This document shows positions 1,871 through 12,900 of a DNA stretch of 41,564 bases, piece by piece. A program made the position numbers and the translations under genes. A model generated the notes under the pieces. That model did no database searches, had not been told where the DNA came from, and was given only the letters and a program-made list of their open reading frames with translations. This DNA is from Promethearchaeota archaeon (GTDB taxonomy: Archaea > Asgardarchaeota > Lokiarchaeia > Sigyniarchaeales > SOKP01): contig JBHLPW010000047.1 of the NCBI GenBank assembly GCA_048939015.1, positions 1-41,564 on the forward strand, read 5' to 3'. Position 1 is the stretch's first letter, and each line of letters starts with the position of its first letter.

Positions 1871-4800
1871 TTAACGTAGGATAATAAAAATCACTAATGC
1901 AACAGCAACCATAACCAAAATAGCTACTCCGATTGCAAATTTTGTGTCTGATGACAATCTAATCCTAAATTTTCGATATGCTCTATATCTACCATTTGAA
2001 GCTATCTCAGAAGTTCTATTAGTGGCACTTCGAATCTTTATATATAGCACAACACCGACTATGGCGATAATTATTGCTAAAATCCAAAATGCTATAACAG
2101 TAGCAGTATCATTTATTATAGGTTTAGGTATATCTGGAACTTCTGCTTCAAAAAAACCAAAATCTACTGTTTTTGTCTCAGGTAAATCTTCCCAATCCGA
2201 TAAATATTCACCTGTTTCTACAGATTTTAATCTATATTCTACATCCTCTTTTGGTAAATACTGTTCAATTGTATTCTGAGCTGAAACGGTTAAATAATCT
2301 ATTTTATCCTTATATTTTAATAAGACCTGAACTGATTCATTTCTATAATTGTTAATAAATTCCCATGCATCAATCTGACTCGTTAATAATGATGTATTTA
2401 ATCCAACATTAGTCCAATTAAGCAATTCACTAAACATCGTCATCTTATATAATTCAGTAAGGAAATCATTTTGTTGTAAGACAATTGAAAGATTTCCTGA
2501 AATTGTATTATTTATTAAGCTTAAAGAAGTGCCTAAATCTAATACAGCATTATAGATACTATTATTGATTAAATATACTGATGAATATACCTGTGAAACT
2601 AAATCACATATTGTATTATTTACTAATACCAAATTGTTCAAAATAGCAATTCTGGAATCATTTATATTAGTATTTGTAAGGGTGATTGAGTTATTTAACA
2701 AAATATAGTTATTTGTAATATTACTTCCAATCTCATCTATTGTTGTATCTAAATCGAATAATGCAGTATCAATTGAAATGTTCATTAATAATAGATTTGT
2801 TTCAAGCTGAGAAATCATTGTAGAAATCGTTCCATTTATCAAATATACATCATTACTTACTCCTATAACCAAATTCGAAATACTTTGATTTATTGAAATA
2901 AGATTATTCTCGATATAGACAAAAGAGGTATTCATAATATTATTGATATTAATAAATGAGGTGTTTGTAAACATATACAATGTAGAGATGTTATTTGCGA
3001 TGTTTTCTATATCTACATCTAAATTTAATAATAAATCTCCTAATGTAGAATTTACATTCGATAAATCTATATTAATATTTATTATGCTATTGTTAATTGC
3101 TGAATTCTGGTTTGTTAAATCTATTTGAACATTAGTAATCTGATTTCCTATTGTAGCATTTACATTGGCTATATTGTAAATTACCTGAGATAATACATTA
3201 TCTGAGTTAATAAGGAGAATATCATCACCACTTAAAGTATATGAATAATAGCTATAACTTCCCCCTTCATTATCAGTCAAATTGATTTTGTAGTATCCTG
3301 CAAACAGATTGAACTTGATAATTTCATTAGGAGCAATCCATTCACTCCAACTATAAGGAGATTCATAGTAGTTTGGATCTCTGGTTATATTAATATGATT
3401 AAATAGCTCTTGTTGGTTCATTATTTTTAAACTATATTCAGTTAGAATAATAGGAACATAATTATCTTCAGCTTGGACTATAAAAGAGTAATTTTTAATG
3501 CTAATATCAAATAAATCTTTAATCTCTACTGATATATTTTCACCTACATCTCTATAAAATACATTACTATAAATTAAATTGCCATCTACATAGGTTTTAT
3601 AGTTATTAAAGAAAAGATATTCTCCCTTTTGATTAGTATAAGTTAAAAAACACAATTTGGAACTATTTATCACTAAGATTTGATGACTTGAAAAAACAAA
3701 TTCGATTGACTCCTCTTTTCCATCTTTAGTATAATTAAATTTGTACGTTCCAGTGGTTAATGAAAATTTGATGATTTCTTCTGAAAAGATATTACCTGAT
3801 TTAATAATTTCAGTGTCTATGTTATTTAACTCATAATATACTGGATTATGATACTCATTTTTTATTTTTAACTTATAGACATTTAGTGTGATATCTATGA
3901 AAGTTTCCTCATATGTTTCATAGGTTTTTACTAATGCATTAAAAGAGTCATAAATCTTTAATTGTATTGAAGTGTCTATATCAACATATAAGATATTACT
4001 TGACAATCGTTTATTTGAATAAGTAAAATTCTCTAATGTGTAATTCACATAGGTAATGTAATCATTAAAATCTAAATGTTCGTTATTAGCATCAAAATAA
4101 TTCACATAGACAATATTATCATCAATACGTTTATATATTAGTGTTTGTAATGTTGCTGAGGTTTCTAATTGTTTAATTTCTTTTAAAATATCATTTTCAT
4201 AGATTTCTATGGTATAATTATTAGGATAGGAAAGAGTTAATTCTCTTCTTTCATATGGAGCTAAATAATAAGAATCTATTTCTGTATATGGTCTTGAAAT
4301 TTTTATAGAATCAATTACCAAATTCTTAGTATCATCAAACGTTCCAGTAAACTCTAATTGGTCAATAGTCATATTAGAATTAATTGTAAACATTTGAGTT
4401 CTTGTTTCAAAATTTCCATTCCCTTGACTTGAAAGGATATACGATTTCTGTTGTACACCATTATTTCGTAAATTAAAATCTATTCGGTTTGGTGATGATG
4501 TATTAAAAATTATTTCTACTTTATCATTAATATGTAAATCTAAGTTAAGATCGTCTGGATTTCTTAATGTTAATGTTTCAGTAGTATCTGTTTGACTATA
4601 TAATACTCCAGACCCTTGATATATTTTAGAGAGATAATAATAAAGTCGTGGTCTAAAATTTGGATTATAATATTCAGTATACAAGAAATCTACTTCAACA
4701 GGATCAACAGTATCTGAAATTAAATTATAATAAAAAATATTAGGATCTCCAGCATCCCATTCATACCAAGTAGCTCCAGATGATATATAAGTTTGAGAGA

Positions 4801-5901: not shown

Positions 5902-6013
5902 ATTTCTATGAGTACATATAAATATATGTCTTTAAAATAAGCTCTACTAAACCAATTTCTCACTTCTATGAAACTTTATAAATATAAATAGTCTAATGAT
6001 AAGTATATTAATA
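5902..6013. promoter_or_regulatory. Duplicated promoter cassette, copy 1
   Basis: Aligns with 7662-7782. Contains a minus-strand TTTATATG box upstream of the RHH gene and a plus-strand GAAACTTTATAA box. Confidence 0.65.
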
Positions 6014-6097
6014 AATTCTTAATATTAGTAATTTAGTTCTACAATCATACAATTTCAATAATTAAATTTTTCAAAAAATAGATATAATATAAAAAAA

Positions 6098-7585
6098 CTA
6101 TTTTCTTCTTCTTAATATTGTTTCAATTTCCTTTCTTCGTTGTCTTCCTTTTATAATTGGAACACCAACATAAATGAATAAAACAATTCCACCTACAACT
6201 ATCAATATTACAATTATCCATGTTATTATATCAAAATCACCAAATAAACCTCCTGCCTCAGTTGTATGGGTTTCGCCACCTCCAAATCCATCAACAGTAG
6301 TTAGCCATAATAATAGATCGTAATATTCAGCTGGAAAACTAAGATCATAATCCTCAATATCATCAGAACCAACATCTATTTTGTATGAACAGAAAACATC
6401 AAAAACCACCTTGATCTTCGTTTGAATATACCGATTTGTACAATGTAATGCTACTGGTTTTGTATAAGACTGATCGTTTTGAGTATTACTATGCTCTTTT
6501 ATACCTATATGTAAAAACGCATCCCAATAATCTATTGAACGATAAAAAATGTATCTGAAAGATAATGTCCCATAGTATTCCATGACAAGTGGACTTAATG
6601 AACCAATATGATAAATGAACTTACAGTCTTTCATTGATGTTTGCTTCACTTCTGGATTCCAAATAGGATCTCCATTTTTAGTAGTTGGATTCATAGAACT
6701 TCCTGCAGTTTGTGGTAATATACCACCATCCCAACTGTTTTGTGGAGTAGTAGGAATATTTAACTGTATATTTGGATTATAATATGCATCAAAAGTTCTG
6801 GTTTTGCTTCTAATATTATTCATTATTGATGAAGTGGGATTTTGCATACTACTATATTCTTCTTCATAGTCTCGTGGTGTTATTCCAACAACAGTAGGAA
6901 CAGAATTGTCTAATTTACCATATACATTATCTACAACTGCAACTGAAGAAACAGCGATATAATCAAAATTCTTAGTAAGAGAATCTCCAGAAACAGTATT
7001 AAAATTAGGAAGTAAATTCTGTGCAATATCAAAAGACATAACTAAATCACCACCAAAATCACTGTGGAGAGAGTTCCACTGTTTTATATTCCCGAAATCA
7101 TAATGATTCCATGTGACATATTCTTCCCAGCCATGCATTACATCTCCCATAAGTCCAAGATGTTGATATTTTGCTACCAGATACTCCTCTTTTACTTGTT
7201 CTAACTTATTATTTTCAGCACAATCTACAACATCCAATGTAGTATACATATTAACTTTGCTTGTCATAGCAACCTTATATCTTATATAAGCATTATCTCC
7301 ATCTGTATAAATGTCTAATAATTCTATATCATCAGGATAAATATTCCAAGAAGCTTGAGACTCGAACTGGAGTTTTTGATTAATTGCCTGTCCTGATAAA
7401 CTTACTGAACTTCCATCGAATGTTTCAAATTTAAAATTCTTTATTAAATCATTCGAAACAATATATGTATCTCCTTCAGCAAATGGACTGAATCCTGTAA
7501 TCGATATACCAGCTATAAGTATTAAAGAAACGACAAAAATTGAAATGAATAGAACTTTTTTGGATTTAGATTTTTTCGATTTCAC
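6098..7585 (-). CDS. Membrane-anchored beta-rich protein (signal peptide + C-terminal TM); candidate spike/fusogen
   Basis: 495 aa, GTG start with GAGGAG RBS. N-terminal signal, ~410-aa ectodomain with 4 Cys, C-terminal TM plus basic tail. Function is inference only. Confidence 0.7.
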   Translation of the reverse strand: MKSKKSKSKKVLFISIFVVSLILIAGISITGFSPFAEGDTYIVSNDLIKNFKFETFDGSSVSLSGQAINQKLQFESQASWNIYPDDIELLDIYTDGDNAYIRYKVAMTSKVNMYTTLDVVDCAENNKLEQVKEEYLVAKYQHLGLMGDVMHGWEEYVTWNHYDFGNIKQWNSLHSDFGGDLVMSFDIAQNLLPNFNTVSGDSLTKNFDYIAVSSVAVVDNVYGKLDNSVPTVVGITPRDYEEEYSSMQNPTSSIMNNIRSKTRTFDAYYNPNIQLNIPTTPQNSWDGGILPQTAGSSMNPTTKNGDPIWNPEVKQTSMKDCKFIYHIGSLSPLVMEYYGTLSFRYIFYRSIDYWDAFLHIGIKEHSNTQNDQSYTKPVALHCTNRYIQTKIKVVFDVFCSYKIDVGSDDIEDYDLSFPAEYYDLLLWLTTVDGFGGGETHTTEAGGLFGDFDIITWIIVILIVVGGIVLFIYVGVPIIKGRQRRKEIETILRRRK

Positions 7586-7971: not shown

Positions 7972-8356
7972 TATAAAATAGGAGTAGAAAGCTGGAAACT
8001 ATTATAAAATATCTTTTTGAAAAAAGATATAAAATAAAAAAATAAAATATGATTTTAATAATTATATTTTATATGTTTTTTTAAAGCGGAATTTTCTAAG
8101 TCAAAATATTTAAAGAATAAAAATTTTTTTCTGAAAAATATATCTCATCATATATAATACACAAATTTATGTTGCGAGCTTATTGACTACATGGTTATTT
8201 AATTTCTTTTTTGATTTATGGTATTATTTTTCAAAAAAGTTAAAAAATGATTAAACTTTATAAAATAGGAGTAGAAAGCTTATAAGGAGTTTTTTGAAAA
8301 AAGATATAAAATATAATGGGATATATTCTTTATTATATTTTATATGTTTTTTTAAA
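7972..8356. repeat. Three-block direct repeat in a non-coding region (candidate origin/iterons)
   Basis: TATAAAATAGGAGTAGAAAGCT (7972-7993, 8259-8280), TTTTTGAAAAAAGATATAAAATA (8014-8036, 8291-8313), ATTATATTTTATATGTTTTTTTAAA (8061-8085, 8332-8356). Confidence 0.85.
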
Positions 8357-8403
8357 TAACCCGTAGGATTAAGATGGAGTAAAAAAGAATAAATCTATTT
8401 GCT

Positions 8404-10563
8404 TTATAGATAATATATAGATTTAGGCTTTCCTCCTTTCTTAGATGGAATGATTGTTTTAATCTTTAAATTTTTATTTCTAACATAGTTATCTAATTTC
8501 TTTTTCGCGATGTAATAAGATATATTATATAACTCCATACAGTCATCTATGGTAATCTGATGATGTTCGGTTAAAAAATCTTTAAGTCTTTTATCGAGTT
8601 CTTTTGTTATACCTCGTTTTTTATCACCGATTTCCTTAAAATAAGATTGTAATTCTCTATGATTCCTAAATGTAATAACCTTTACATTTTCAACATTATT
8701 ATAACCAAGATCCAATCCAGATAATTCTAAACAGAATTTATCATTAATACCACGCATCATACGTCCCATTGCTTGACTCATTTCTGTTTGAGCTTTTTCT
8801 TCCCGATATTCATCTGGATTTATACTAAAAAAAGTAGATTCACGATTGATATGACCACTTGGAATATCAGGAGTTCCAAAAAGTATTGTAGAATTAAAGT
8901 TTTCATATTCATTAGTACCAGCTAATGGATATCTTACACATGTTAGGTTATCATTAGTTTTTTTTATGTATTTCCATAAACGAGTATTAGGTTGTTCATC
9001 ACTCGGTTTAGTTCGTACTTTCATATCTCTTGATACAAATAAATGTTGTCCAATTTCTGGAAAAGCATATATATATGCTTCCATATCTTCTTTTAATCTT
9101 TTCAGTGTTGAATATCGTTGTATTGATGCTTTTGGATAATATGCAAATTTCCTGTTAAAGCCACCCTTTCGTTTGTGTGGATATTCCAGTTTATATATTG
9201 TAAGATTATTCGAAACCATATTTTTCTTGTAAATCTGTAATCGATCACCAAATATCTTTTGTAATTTTAATATACTGGCAGTAGCATCATTTATAATAAG
9301 TTTAATGATTTTTTCAGTATCTAACATCTCAACTATACTGTGAAAATCATAATATAACATTCCTATACGATATTGAGGTGTATTATCATCAGGATTTTTG
9401 TTTTTAAATTTAACTCTTAAGATGACTTTTTCCAGCCAGTTATCTATATTTGTAGGATCTGTTTTTTTCATATAAAAATAGTTTCTAATAAATGAAAGGA
9501 TGTGATAAAAATAAAATCGTTTAAATGGGAAACTATTTGGTCTTATATTTTTATTTTCTAATTGTCTATTTCTCTTTTCATTTTTTTCCAGTATCTTCCA
9601 TGCTTGTGTGTTTAGGATATTAATACTCTCACCATCAACATCAAAACAATCTTCCATGCAATCTAATATATCTTTAATCTTCTTGTAATCAAGCTCATTA
9701 ATAATTCCTTCTTTTAACAGGTTTAAAAATTCTAAAAGCATTTCAAAATCAGCTAAATAGAATATAGTTTTTGAGGTCTTTTTCAACTCCAAATCCATTA
9801 TAACTTTTTCTAAAAATGTAATGTTCTTGTTAAGAGTAGAAAGATAAATTTTATTATTTGTTTTAATAGCATTCTCGAAATCTTCATCTATGACTAAAAC
9901 CATCCTGTCTAATCTTGTTAGCCAAATCGGAATGAATTTGTTTATTTGATGAGATACAGTTAAACATAAACTTACATAGGATGGTGGAAATAATTCACGT
10001 ATTTTACAAAAGTAAGGACACATATTATCTCGATGTTCACATTTACGACATAAATAATCAATGGATAATCCTATTTTTTCCGCACACTCTACTAATGGAT
10101 CAATTCTACGCAAACAAGTACGTCCTTTACCTTCAAAAATAAGATAATTTAATGGAACTTGTGCAAACTTCTCTATTTGACGTTCAAATTCTTTTACTCC
10201 TTGTTCATATTGTTGTCCAAGCAATACTATTGCTGTTCGTTCTTTTTCCACCATGAAATCAATTGTATAACGTATGATATTTAATATCCATTGTATAATA
10301 TTCGCTGTTTTCCCTGCTCCAGTAGATAATTTCACGAGATTTATTATTTTATCATTTAAGAAAATGTCTTTATAGATGAAATTCACTTCCATCCATTGTT
10401 TTTTCAGTCTTTCAGGTACATCAAGAGATTTTTGTTCATTTAAAATTTTTTTATGGATTTTATTTATTAAATCATCATTGTAGTGATATGCAACACCATC
10501 ATACAATTCTTCATGTTTCTTTTTATTATTTTTTAAATTTTCAAAAAAAGTTGGTTCAGTCAT
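8404..10563 (-). CDS. SF2 helicase, DinG/XPD-like with Cys cluster and C-terminal wHTH; probable replication protein of the element
   Basis: Walker A STGAGKT, Cys cluster GRTC..C..CRKC..CPYFC, Walker B LVIDED, motif III DAT, motif VI QAMGRMMR. GGGAG RBS. Confidence 0.75.
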   Translation of the reverse strand: MTEPTFFENLKNNKKKHEELYDGVAYHYNDDLINKIHKKILNEQKSLDVPERLKKQWMEVNFIYKDIFLNDKIINLVKLSTGAGKTANIIQWILNIIRYTIDFMVEKERTAIVLLGQQYEQGVKEFERQIEKFAQVPLNYLIFEGKGRTCLRRIDPLVECAEKIGLSIDYLCRKCEHRDNMCPYFCKIRELFPPSYVSLCLTVSHQINKFIPIWLTRLDRMVLVIDEDFENAIKTNNKIYLSTLNKNITFLEKVIMDLELKKTSKTIFYLADFEMLLEFLNLLKEGIINELDYKKIKDILDCMEDCFDVDGESINILNTQAWKILEKNEKRNRQLENKNIRPNSFPFKRFYFYHILSFIRNYFYMKKTDPTNIDNWLEKVILRVKFKNKNPDDNTPQYRIGMLYYDFHSIVEMLDTEKIIKLIINDATASILKLQKIFGDRLQIYKKNMVSNNLTIYKLEYPHKRKGGFNRKFAYYPKASIQRYSTLKRLKEDMEAYIYAFPEIGQHLFVSRDMKVRTKPSDEQPNTRLWKYIKKTNDNLTCVRYPLAGTNEYENFNSTILFGTPDIPSGHINRESTFFSINPDEYREEKAQTEMSQAMGRMMRGINDKFCLELSGLDLGYNNVENVKVITFRNHRELQSYFKEIGDKKRGITKELDKRLKDFLTEHHQITIDDCMELYNISYYIAKKKLDNYVRNKNLKIKTIIPSKKGGKPKSIYYL

Positions 10564-10588
10564 TTTTAACTCCCTTGTTATTAATAAT

Positions 10589-10615
10589 ACCGATGTCGGT
10601 TATTTATAAACTTTT
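10589..10615 (-). promoter_or_regulatory. Helicase promoter (BRE/TATA) with operator-like palindrome
   Basis: Minus strand reads CAAAAGTTTATAAATA, immediately followed by the palindrome ACCGA-N2-TCGGT (10589-10600), then the RBS and ATG. Confidence 0.55.
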
Positions 10616-10716
10616 GTCCTATTCACTGAAATATAAACCTCGTTTAATAAAATAAATTAATTTATAAAATCGGCTAATAAAGTTAGTGTGAGACTAATTA
10701 TACATATAAACTTTTT

Positions 10717-10810
10717 TTATTATCTACTCAGTTTCGAGTAGATACTAACTGATTGTGATCTTAGAATATTATTCTCGTATATGATCTACCCAGTTTTGAG
10801 TAGATATTAA
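10717..10810. other. Two dif/lox-like palindromic sites (arms + 6-bp spacer)
   Basis: TTATTATCTACTC-AGTTTC-GAGTAGATACTAA (10717-10748) and ATATGATCTACCC-AGTTTT-GAGTAGATATTAA (10779-10810). Confidence 0.6.
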
Positions 10811-10876
10811 AAATTTACTAAAAAACCAAAACATTTAAATTCAACCTATAACTATTATGCTTGGTGGTTTTTTCAC

Positions 10877-10941
10877 TTCATTGTTTTCTCTTAGATGTGT
10901 ATTTTCTCCCTTGTTAGTACATGTCTGAGAAAAACAATGAA
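10877..10941 (+). ncRNA. Putative hairpin small RNA with an anti-RBS loop
   Basis: 24-bp stem with one bulge and three G-U pairs that form only on the plus strand. The 16-nt loop contains CUCCCUUGUUA, complementary to the helicase mRNA RBS region. Confidence 0.5.
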
Positions 10942-11352
10942 CTTCTTTAATAAGAATTACTAAAATAAAGTATTTTTAAAATAAATTACTTAATTTACTT
11001 CATTTTTGAATATCCATTTTAATTTACACTCATAAGAGCAAAAATAATGAGCTATACTAATTTTCTAAACTTATAAACCTCGTTTATATAAACCTCGTTT
11101 ATAATCCTAAAAATCGGTTTAAAATCTTTAATCCTGAATTATATATATATTTTCAAAAATAAAAAAATCGTTCCTAAAAAAGCCTGAAAATAGAGGTTTA
11201 TGAAAAATTTAAAAAAATTATTTTATTTTTAGGTAATTTTCAAATATTAAAACCATTAAAAATATGGTGCATTTCTTTATAATAGATTTTTTTAATAGAT
11301 AAAATATAAAAAATAAACCTATATTTTTAATAAATTAAATTGGTTTAAAACC

Positions 11353-12621
11353 TTAGATTTCATCTTTTTTGATACCATGGTATTCTAATCGTGCTTCTGC
11401 TTCGGTTATTTCTCCTTTCTTTATTCTTTTTTCTAAATCATCCCGATAATAAAGATCGTCAAATAAAGATTTCATTTCTTCTCTCATATTATTCATTTCC
11501 TCTTTGTACAAGTCTTTCATAGCTTCTAACTCATCTTTAAGTTCTTTATTTTCTTCTTTTAGTCTTTGGATATCTTCTTTTTCTTCTAACCTATCAATCA
11601 CTATTCTTTCCTTATTAACAACATGACCACATTTATAACAAAAAGCATTTTGTTGGTTGTTTTCAGTTTTACAGACTTCACAAATAATCTTTTTAAAGGT
11701 TTTAGCTTTTGTTTTTTTTGGTTTTTGTCCATTCTGCTCTAACAAAATGTTCCTTATATCAGTATCATCTATATGAAAATAAATGGATGCCATTTGAGAT
11801 TCTTTTGTCCATCCTGCAAATTTTCTTAATTGTGGTTCATTTAGTTTGGTTAATGCAAGCTCAGTCAAGCGACTGTGTCTAAATAAATGAGGATGCAAAT
11901 CCTTATTCCAATCAGGATATCTTTTTTTTAATTTTTCAGTTAGTCTGCTGTAATATGTTGTGATCCATTGGGGATGATAATCAAATATCTTATCTTCTGG
12001 TTTAAAATCATTCTGATTAAAATATTCTCTTAGATATGGCACAGATTCAATTAAAGTAATGTTTCTCGATACTGTCTTTGATTTTCCAATATAGATATCA
12101 AGAAATTCTTCATCTTTTTCAGGAAATTTCACATCTCTAAATAATATATTAACTAACTCATCTCTTCGCAGTGCTCCCTCATAATTCACCATAATCATGG
12201 CTCTTTTTTTCATACCAACATTTTTAAGAATTAAATCTAATTCTTTTCTGGAAATCAAATCAGTTTTATTTAATTCCTTGCTTTTCATACTATAAGTTGG
12301 AAATATTTCAATTAAGTCCTTTCTCTCAAAATAATCAAAATACTTCTTTAATTCAGATAAATAGGTGTTTTTAGTTCTATTGGATAATTTTTTAAATTTC
12401 TCGTTATTTATGAGATCTTTAATATCATCTTTAGTTAAGTTTTTTGGAACAAATTTACCTGTTAAATCATAGAATCTACTGAGAGCATTTAAATTGGTTT
12501 GTTGTGAATGATATGATAACTGTTCTAATTTAAATGTAAAATAATCATCAAAAACAGGGTTTAAAAGAATTAATTCATTCTTTTTATCATTTACATATGA
12601 ACCTTTATTAGCTTGAGTCAT
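11353..12621 (-). CDS. Tyrosine recombinase/integrase with C-terminal Zn ribbon and coiled coil
   Basis: Catalytic residues R (GALRRDE), K (KSKT), HxxR (HLFRH), GW, Y (IYFH). CEVC..CYKC ribbon. TTTAAATG box ~24 nt upstream, suggesting a leaderless mRNA. Confidence 0.92.
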   Translation of the reverse strand: MTQANKGSYVNDKKNELILLNPVFDDYFTFKLEQLSYHSQQTNLNALSRFYDLTGKFVPKNLTKDDIKDLINNEKFKKLSNRTKNTYLSELKKYFDYFERKDLIEIFPTYSMKSKELNKTDLISRKELDLILKNVGMKKRAMIMVNYEGALRRDELVNILFRDVKFPEKDEEFLDIYIGKSKTVSRNITLIESVPYLREYFNQNDFKPEDKIFDYHPQWITTYYSRLTEKLKKRYPDWNKDLHPHLFRHSRLTELALTKLNEPQLRKFAGWTKESQMASIYFHIDDTDIRNILLEQNGQKPKKTKAKTFKKIICEVCKTENNQQNAFCYKCGHVVNKERIVIDRLEEKEDIQRLKEENKELKDELEAMKDLYKEEMNNMREEMKSLFDDLYYRDDLEKRIKKGEITEAEARLEYHGIKKDEI

Positions 12622-12900
12622 AATTAAATAATGAAAATTTTAACATTTAAATTTAACTATAAACTCTTTTCATTATTTATATTATAACTATAAATACAAA
12701 TTTATAATTTTATTTATCAAACGAAATTACGTTATTCTACTTAAAACAAAGAAATTGATCATAAATAAATTGTTTTAAATTACCATTGTTTAGTAAAAAT
12801 GCGAAATTTCCAAAAGTTAAATTATAATTAAATTTACAATTTGTGTTATTAGAAGTAAAATGCTTGATCTTCTATTGAAAATCTGAAAAAATTGTGGTTT

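Follow-up and report, generated by a model that had tools for sequence, protein, structure and literature searches.

The stretch of DNA analysed here (hereafter the window; 41,564 nucleotides (nt)) opens contig C28 of a metagenome-assembled genome of a Promethearchaeota archaeon, which has a size of 4.86 Mb and is 95% complete. Positions 1 to approximately 12678 belong to an integrated element that is truncated by the contig end and whose protein genes all lie on the minus strand, while host genes, among them panB, a class IV aminotransferase gene and genes for Ras-family GTPases, follow from 12901 on. The element encodes a tyrosine integrase (11353–12621, minus strand; Pfam and PHROG matches), the gene of which is apparently leaderless, and, beyond a 789-bp spacer, a 719-aa protein (P0001; 8404–10563, minus strand) with the features of an XPD/DinG-like iron–sulfur (Fe-S) superfamily 2 (SF2) helicase; a 495-aa protein, a DUF5658 protein and a 1161-aa CBM96 protein are among its further products. 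Within the spacer, the plus strand harbors a long hairpin (10877–10941), whose loop is complementary to the ribosome-binding site (RBS) of the helicase gene. This report deals with that hairpin, which we tentatively read as part of a small RNA directed against the Shine–Dalgarno (SD) sequence of the helicase messenger.

The plus-strand sequence 10877–10941 folds with a minimum free energy (MFE) of −28.9 kcal/mol (z = −9.1), and none of 200 shuffled sequences folded as well. It is the strongest 70-nt fold of the whole window and ranks approximately 20th of the 9368 strand-specific folds computed for inverted-repeat candidates across the genome. In the MFE structure, the stem comprises 25 bp (10878–10940) with one bulged C (10888) and with four G-U pairs that exist on the plus strand only (i.e., U16-G51, U20-G47, G21-U46 and U26-G41 in hairpin numbering). 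The minus strand reached only −14.7 kcal/mol because these four pairs turn into A-C mismatches there, and an earlier note on this DNA, made from the sequence alone, was therefore right in holding that the G-U pairs favour the plus strand. That note had described a stem of 24 bp with three G-U pairs and a loop of 16 nt; the structure is the same, but two weak pairs at the top of the stem had been left open, and the MFE fold closes them to give an apical loop of 12 nt (UUCUCCCUUGUU; 10904–10915, plus strand). For 10 of the 12 loop bases, the predicted probability of being unpaired was about 1.0. The hairpin did not match any Rfam covariance model, C4 included, at the gathering score, and only chance-level hits were obtained (E values of 0.17–0.64); a weak minus-strand SNORD hit (E value of 0.17), which would have suggested a C/D-box RNA, and hits to miRNA precursors were rejected as chance. 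No terminator-like site of the intrinsic (bacterial) type was found in 10500–11400, the nearest T5 run lying 32 nt past the stem, and a scan with sigma-70 and terminator models, which are irrelevant to archaea, yielded nothing above shuffled sequences. A look-up of sequencing runs over 8000–12700 listed none of RNA, and three DNA runs showed neither variants nor joints at the hairpin, the locus being barely covered by two raw-read runs.

An 11-mer (CUCCCUUGUUA; 10906–10916, plus strand) lies in the hairpin loop, and in the 4.86-Mb genome, counting both strands, CTCCCTTGTTA was found twice only, here and at 10570–10580. The copy at 10570–10580 is complementary to UAACAAGGGAG in the helicase leader (10570–10580, minus strand), a candidate target that includes the SD sequence GGGAG and ends 6 nt before the helicase AUG (10563–10561). 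Hence, the earlier claim that the loop carries the exact complement of the helicase RBS stands, with 11 of 11 nt complementary and no other occurrence in the genome, and the match extends to 13 of 14 nt when the flanks are included. When the loops of 537 clean hairpins of the genome were shuffled, the mean number of matches of at least 11 nt to a start region within 1.5 kb was 0.23, compared with three matches for the real loops, one of them AT-only. Allowing for multiple hairpins and genes, the chance probability of the match is roughly 1e-3 to 1e-2, and a chance origin of the complementarity over the SD sequence is unlikely. Pairing strength was expressed as duplex energy, given that the ddG of 0 returned by RNAcofold was uninformative for a loop-to-linear kissing contact, which is beyond its model. 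Of 5016 windows on both strands of the 12.7-kb element, the helicase start region was the best partner for the loop, at −17.7 kcal/mol. In a comparison of start regions in the window, that of the helicase scored −17.5 kcal/mol and the other 33 tested −11.2 kcal/mol or weaker. The suggestion in the earlier note that other GGGAG-led genes might be targeted as well did not hold up, since the gene at 165–1280 pairs at only −9.1 kcal/mol, inside the background of unrelated genes. SD use by the host was judged from upstream motif enrichment; the 3′ end of the 16S ribosomal RNA is absent from the assembly.

Positional homologues of the hairpin are present in two related integrative elements with related integrases, L066 (6547–6612, minus strand) and L071 (574–638, minus strand). 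L066 is a 6.9-kb element, the integrase of which is 74% identical to that of the window. It shares with the window a 91-nt segment (10961–11050, minus strand, homologous to L066 6454–6541; 72.5% identity by blastn), with the hairpin adjoining at the same relative position. In L066, the segment forms the 3′ end of an intact 110-aa zinc-ribbon-like gene; in the window, the last 15 codons of that gene are left as a relic (11002–11046, minus strand; tblastn, 80% over 15 aa, E value of 5e-4), and in L071 the hairpin follows a 69%-identical copy of it. Two other loci (L069 and L070) are identical to L066 in both the 110-aa gene and the hairpin region. The three hairpins share the 5′ flank TTTTTCAYTTCATTKTTTTCWYTTAGAT and have stems of 20–25 bp (25 in the window, 20–21 in the relatives), the distal parts of which differ but remain paired. 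All three fold better on the strand equivalent to the plus strand of the window, by 14.2 kcal/mol in the window and by 2.8 and 4.8 kcal/mol in the relatives. Summed over the three hairpins, there are six G-U pairs on the favoured strand versus one on the other (an extra loop-closing U-G, L066), and two U-G pairs of the window hairpin are replaced by U-A in L066. Pyrimidine-rich loops are found in all three (UUCUCCCUUGUU in the window, CUUUUUCUUUCUUUUA in L066 and a 19-nt loop with the core CUUUUUUCUUUUUUUC in L071), as is a TTTAAAT box 43–60 nt upstream on the favoured strand (51–60 nt in L066 and L071). Downstream, there is a T5 run in the window and in L066, where the U5 run begins two bases past the stem; L071 has only T4. 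The earlier note had tied its proposal to the retention of both the stem and the loop-to-RBS pairing in homologous elements; the stem is kept in three of three, the loop sequence is not, and the two relatives carry no helicase.

Judged by these comparisons, the hairpin is a selected, strand-specific structure older than its place beside the helicase. The window loop looks retuned rather than inserted, because most of its differences from the L066 loop are U/C transitions. With a relic of the zinc-ribbon gene in its spacer, the element looks like a composite, in which the integrase, the gene relic and the hairpin module of a small 6.9-kb element were joined to a helicase/membrane-protein module. 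Further loci with integrase homologues (L065, L067, L068 and L072–L076) contained no homologue of the hairpin. The 789-bp spacer gave only AT-rich noise, and nothing over the hairpin, against 134 family genomes, an exact 25-mer search of viral contigs was without a match, and so was the end of L066 when searched against the family.

P0001 gave no hit by sequence in Pfam, PHROG or the PDB. Its assignment as a helicase, for which the label in the earlier note proved justified, follows from conserved motifs and cysteines together with structural matches: 29 relatives have the motifs GxGKT, DE, DAT and Q..GR..R conserved, Walker A, the DE motif and three invariant Cys recur across 14 homologues, and the AlphaFold (AF2) model (predicted local distance difference test score, pLDDT, of 84) matched DinG (8zef) and XPD (8rev) in Foldseek with an E value of ~1e-13. 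The related element L075 encodes an XPD-type helicase followed by a primase-polymerase, an order consistent with a replicative role of the helicase. The predicted helicase promoter has the TATA box TTTATAAATA (10601–10610, minus strand), with CAAAAG before it (CAAAAG-TTTATAAATA, 10616–10601). Applying the −30 spacing of leaderless host genes, the mRNA would start near 10580–10582 and have a 17–19-nt leader (10564–10582), so the sequence complementary to the loop would occupy positions +1 to +13, the extreme 5′ end of the predicted messenger. An operator-like palindrome, ACCGA-TG-TCGGT (10589–10600), separates the helicase TATA box from the RBS; this is the classic position of repressor sites in archaea.

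Other signals surround the hairpin in the spacer. A BRE/TATA-like box (TFB-recognition element and TATA box; AAAACATTTAAAT, 10828–10840, plus strand) would, if used rightwards, place a transcription start near 10863–10864. A T5 run (10973–10977, plus strand) is a candidate 3′ end for an RNA of approximately 114 nt, and the motif TATTTTTAAAATAA at this run is common to L066, where it stands directly past the stem. The palindromic 15-mer TATAAACCTCGTTTA, part of the palindrome TATAAAC-CTC-GTTTATA, occurs in three exact copies, all inside the integrase-helicase spacer: two in tandem at 11072–11101 (11072–11086 and 11087–11101) and one at 10632–10646, just upstream of the helicase promoter. These copies resemble the operator of a dimeric regulator. 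Twin 22-bp palindromes are further binding-site-like motifs beside the hairpin.

The single explanation that best accommodates the hairpin, in our tentative judgement, is an anti-SD small RNA, and the interpretation given in the earlier note is partly supported. The hairpin would be the central part of a gene for a small non-coding RNA on the plus strand, opposite to the protein genes of the element, with a transcript spanning approximately 10864–10977 (~114 nt) from a start past the TTTAAAT box to an end at the T5 run. The exposed pyrimidine-rich loop would pair with the first ~13 nt of the helicase mRNA, over the SD sequence GGGAG, and this pairing would block binding of the 30S ribosomal subunit, keeping the XPD/DinG-like helicase untranslated while the element is integrated; the RNA may thus serve in the control of latency or replication. 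The hairpin module, older than its association with the helicase, would have come with the integrase-linked module of small elements using the same site, and its loop would apparently have been retuned to the new neighbour.

A number of observations weigh against an anti-SD RNA. The transcript and its ends, as well as pairing and repression in vivo, are predictions from the sequence. The TATA-like box, which the earlier note had correctly placed at ~10828–10840, is palindromic, and its orientation is for this reason not proven; moreover, a promoter weight matrix built from 545 presumed leaderless host genes was AT-dominated, did not discriminate in the 26%-GC spacer, missed even the helicase promoter and was dropped. 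A T6 run (10868–10873, plus strand; T7 in L066 and L071) separates the candidate promoter from the stem in all three homologues and could be an early terminator; T-runs are probably not absolute stops, given that a T7 run is also found inside the helicase open reading frame (ORF). The loop sequence varies among the three hairpins, and L066 and L071 are without the helicase, so that there is no seed-target covariation for the window RNA; among start regions, the L066 loop has its best partner in a purine tract of low complexity that precedes a 50-aa gene. The window loop pairs with sites inside the 1161-aa gene at −17.0 kcal/mol, versus −17.7 kcal/mol for the helicase start, and the closed 12-nt loop requires opening of the weak top of the stem for 11 continuous pairs. 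About 20 loci with helicase homologues (L003–L008 and L017–L033; five close, 16 metagenomic and one viral contig) showed neither an equivalent hairpin nor a related spacer, and their loop-to-start complementarity of at least 9 nt was confined to AT-only or low-complexity purine words. Finally, tolerance of G-T on one strand is equally expected of a single-stranded DNA hairpin.

This last point also supports the main rival, a less likely but serious one, in which the hairpin acts as DNA, either as a cruciform or single-stranded hairpin of an origin or helicase-loading region or as a protein-binding site. The 14-mer shared by loop and leader (CTCCCTTGTTAnTA) would then be the site of one protein, e.g., of the C-terminal winged helix of the helicase; with this site placed in an origin hairpin as well as over the transcription start of the helicase gene, the initiator would regulate itself, as happens in iteron plasmids. 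The hairpin is located, in each of the three elements, in the main non-coding stretch beside repeated motifs resembling binding sites, namely the three copies of the palindromic 15-mer, the twin palindromes and ACCGA-TG-TCGGT in the window, and three to five iterons AAAGTGAACATTATTTAG beside the att site in L066 and L071 (the L066 iteron had no match in viral contigs). The two 11-mers are direct repeats, as expected of binding sites, the T-runs that flank the hairpin on both strands could exclude transcription, and with G-T being the best tolerated DNA mismatch, the strand bias agrees with extrusion of the hairpin from a single strand. However, the 11-mer exists in two copies only, one of which is buried in the loop, L066 and L071 have wholly different loops between conserved flanks, and for a binding site in double-stranded DNA, 14 kcal/mol is a large difference between the strands; furthermore, a better candidate origin lies downstream of the helicase, where repeated blocks and a hairpin are conserved in L003 and L006. 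We regard as unlikely a purely structural role of the hairpin, at the RNA or DNA level and with no antisense function, i.e., as a 3′ end, insulator or roadblock of a small-gene operon, with the RBS identity being fortuitous and helped by the match of a pyrimidine-rich loop to a purine-rich RBS. The L066 hairpin is indeed situated ~30 nt past the stop codon of the last gene in a ten-gene operon, that gene is a relic in the window, where the hairpin may be a leftover, many purine tracts give duplexes of −13 to −18 kcal/mol with the L066 and L071 loops, and archaeal termination needs only T-runs such as those flanking the hairpin. Set against this, the window stem is longer and stronger than those of its relatives (25 vs. 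20–21 bp) despite the loss of the upstream gene, which argues for a maintained function independent of that gene, the gene-sense strand has the weaker fold in all three hairpins and is followed by A-runs rather than U-runs, and an exact 11-mer match with G and A among its positions is expected by chance at ~1e-3 or less, even when loop composition is allowed for.

Two further explanations carry far less weight. In one, a relic duplication of the helicase gene start would have given rise to the loop, as a decayed copy of the leader around which a palindrome formed by chance. The 13/14 identity in direct orientation at a distance of 336 bp and the A-rich run after GGGAG in both copies would fit; nevertheless, no similarity extends past the 14-mer, a local alignment of the 160-nt neighbourhoods picked an unrelated AT-rich match, and elements without the helicase already have the hairpin with its flank and with a loop of similar length that is also pyrimidine-rich. 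As the module is present in these helicase-free elements, the loop is homologous to the loops of L066 and L071 and not to a gene start, and a relic duplication, which the earlier note had kept as its null, is very unlikely and largely refuted by three homologous hairpins, two of them in helicase-free elements. A related candidate, an insertion of 10581–10905 with an 11-bp target duplication, was rejected: terminal inverted repeats are missing, and the segment contains the helicase promoter. The other explanation, a small hydrophobic peptide gene with the hairpin as mRNA structure as in type I toxin loci, is highly improbable. It draws on two short plus-strand ORFs overlapping the hairpin (10857–10928, 23 aa, and 10895–10963, 22 aa), one of them hydrophobic, but there is no SD sequence, the ATG at 10857 is upstream of the predicted start and too near the TATA box for a leaderless mRNA, and neither ORF is conserved in L066 or L071, the stems of which differ.

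A genome-wide screen of hairpin loops against start regions revealed a second case of this kind at a host locus. On the minus strand of contig C123, a hairpin (L034 ~3967–4066) carries the loop UACUCACCUCA, which is complementary to 11–13 nt around the SD sequence (UUGAGGUGAGUA; L034:4397–4409) of a 92-aa ORF that lies just upstream on the same strand (4111–4389). A second copy of this hairpin is present near L034:2372–2470. The locus was found in 20 congeners at 69–87% identity, with loop and SD sequence almost invariant, and in one genome (G068) a U-to-C change in the SD sequence is matched by an A-to-G change in the loop. Stem variants form G-U pairs on the minus strand only (including G-C to G-U), and a T-rich box ~25 nt upstream and a T-run after the stem are also present. 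The host hairpin had no match in Rfam and looks like an undescribed small RNA (sRNA) family. Both hairpins adjoin their presumed target and present an apical loop complementary to its SD region; however, the host hairpin is downstream of and on the same strand as its target, has internal loops in its fold and is well conserved, whereas that of the element is upstream, on the opposite strand, and varies in its loop among homologues. A conserved anti-SD loop in the same genome raises the prior for loop-to-SD pairing in this lineage, and the remark in the earlier note that no such system is known in Asgard archaea needs qualifying to that extent. A broader generalisation, which we consider doubtful, is that Asgards of the Loki- and Heimdall-type and their integrative elements share an undescribed habit of placing hairpin RNA genes beside a single gene, with the apical loop tuned to its RBS. 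In the present case, an inherited module would have been retargeted by a few loop substitutions to silence a newly acquired XPD-like helicase, as an independent archaeal counterpart of phage c4-type immunity.

Functionally, the nearest analogues of the proposed RNA would be c4 of phages P1 and P7, sRNA162 of Methanosarcina mazei and the countertranscripts of plasmids. The c4 antisense RNA (immI; Rfam C4) is a small structured RNA of a temperate element that does not overlap its target; it pairs, by means of short exposed loops, with the ribosome-binding region of a gene nearby, and a lytic or replication function is thereby kept silent. Non-overlapping loop-to-RBS pairing in a mobile element is what we propose for the window hairpin as well, but c4 is cut from the transcript of its own target and uses two loops, whereas the window RNA would come from the opposite strand, use a single loop and act in an archaeal host; in addition, the window hairpin is without sequence or structure match to any Rfam family. 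In M. mazei, base-pairing of sRNA162 masks both the RBS and the start codon of the target, as verified in vitro and in vivo (PMC4152357). The likeness is the masking of an RBS in an archaeon, proposed here from sequence, and the window loop is, by computation, an exposed seed complementary to the start region of its target. However, sRNA162 is not homologous to the window hairpin, pairs through an unstructured linker and not through a hairpin loop, is chromosomal, targets a regulator gene and also overlaps another gene. CopA of R1 and RNAI of ColE1 and pT181 resemble the hairpin in being stable stem-loops, the loops of which initiate pairing with a replication-gene leader in negative feedback, but they are encoded exactly antisense to that leader and are fully complementary to it. 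The window hairpin does not overlap the predicted helicase leader, lying ~300 nt upstream and sharing only 11–14 nt with it. Iteron-type plasmid origins are likewise similar in that a replication gene adjoins an AT-rich spacer with repeated binding sites and a long inverted repeat, and such a setting was found here, with the 15-mer in three copies in the spacer and iterons in L066 and L071; unlike the window hairpin, the repeats of these origins have neither a strong single-strand bias nor RBS complementarity.

To our knowledge, there is no experimental work on replication or latency control in Asgard mobile elements, and we are aware of very little on RNA-based regulation in Asgard archaea. 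If an anti-SD RNA is indeed made, the locus would offer a concrete, mutable seed-target pair of 11 nt and, together with the host example, point to recurrent gene-specific translational control in the archaeal lineage closest to eukaryotes. If the hairpin belongs to an origin instead, it would mark a possible loading site of an unusual XPD-like helicase. Either way, the mechanism would be of a familiar kind, and the case is built on three sequences.

Regarding the limits of the element, its right edge is near 12678, adjoining panB, where reads of a sister sample diverge and reveal an empty or alternative junction. A 74%-identical integrase occupies the same panB-adjacent insertion site in another assembly (L065), and the relatives of the integrase carry the source labels Lokiarchaeota or Promethearchaeota. 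Upstream of the integrase there is an att-like sequence (TTTATTTATAG..TTA.AATATTTAA; window ~12650–12762, L066:37–178, L071:863–950, L065:5800–6000), which occurs a second time at the far end of the L066/L071 element. GC skew was uninformative on the 12-kb fragment. In L073 and L074, with an integrase 47% identical, a DUF5658 gene and the module of a ~1160-aa giant protein are held in common with the element, and an XPD-like helicase is absent; in L075 and L076, an XPD-type helicase recognisable by Pfam is paired with a Prim-Pol protein.

As for the helicase gene itself, its distant homologues (L017, L019–L022, L025 and L032) start 25–30 nt past a TTTAAA box and are apparently leaderless, and its close relatives are inside operons, behind small ORFs with other SD sequences. 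Just 3′ of the gene there are two paralogous hairpins built on TATAAAATATA...TATATTTTATA (8291–8360 and 8014–8086 in the window; L006:2846–2915; L003:~12295–12360), the outer arms of which differ yet are complementary in elements whose helicases are only 46–63% identical. They constitute a conserved non-coding structure and are a candidate origin or another RNA. Lastly, the divergent promoter region of L066 (L066:3358–3522) has a regulatory motif of ~30 nt that recurs at three places in the element of the window (10691–10723, 5971–5995 and 6062–6121), which suggests that regulators are shared.

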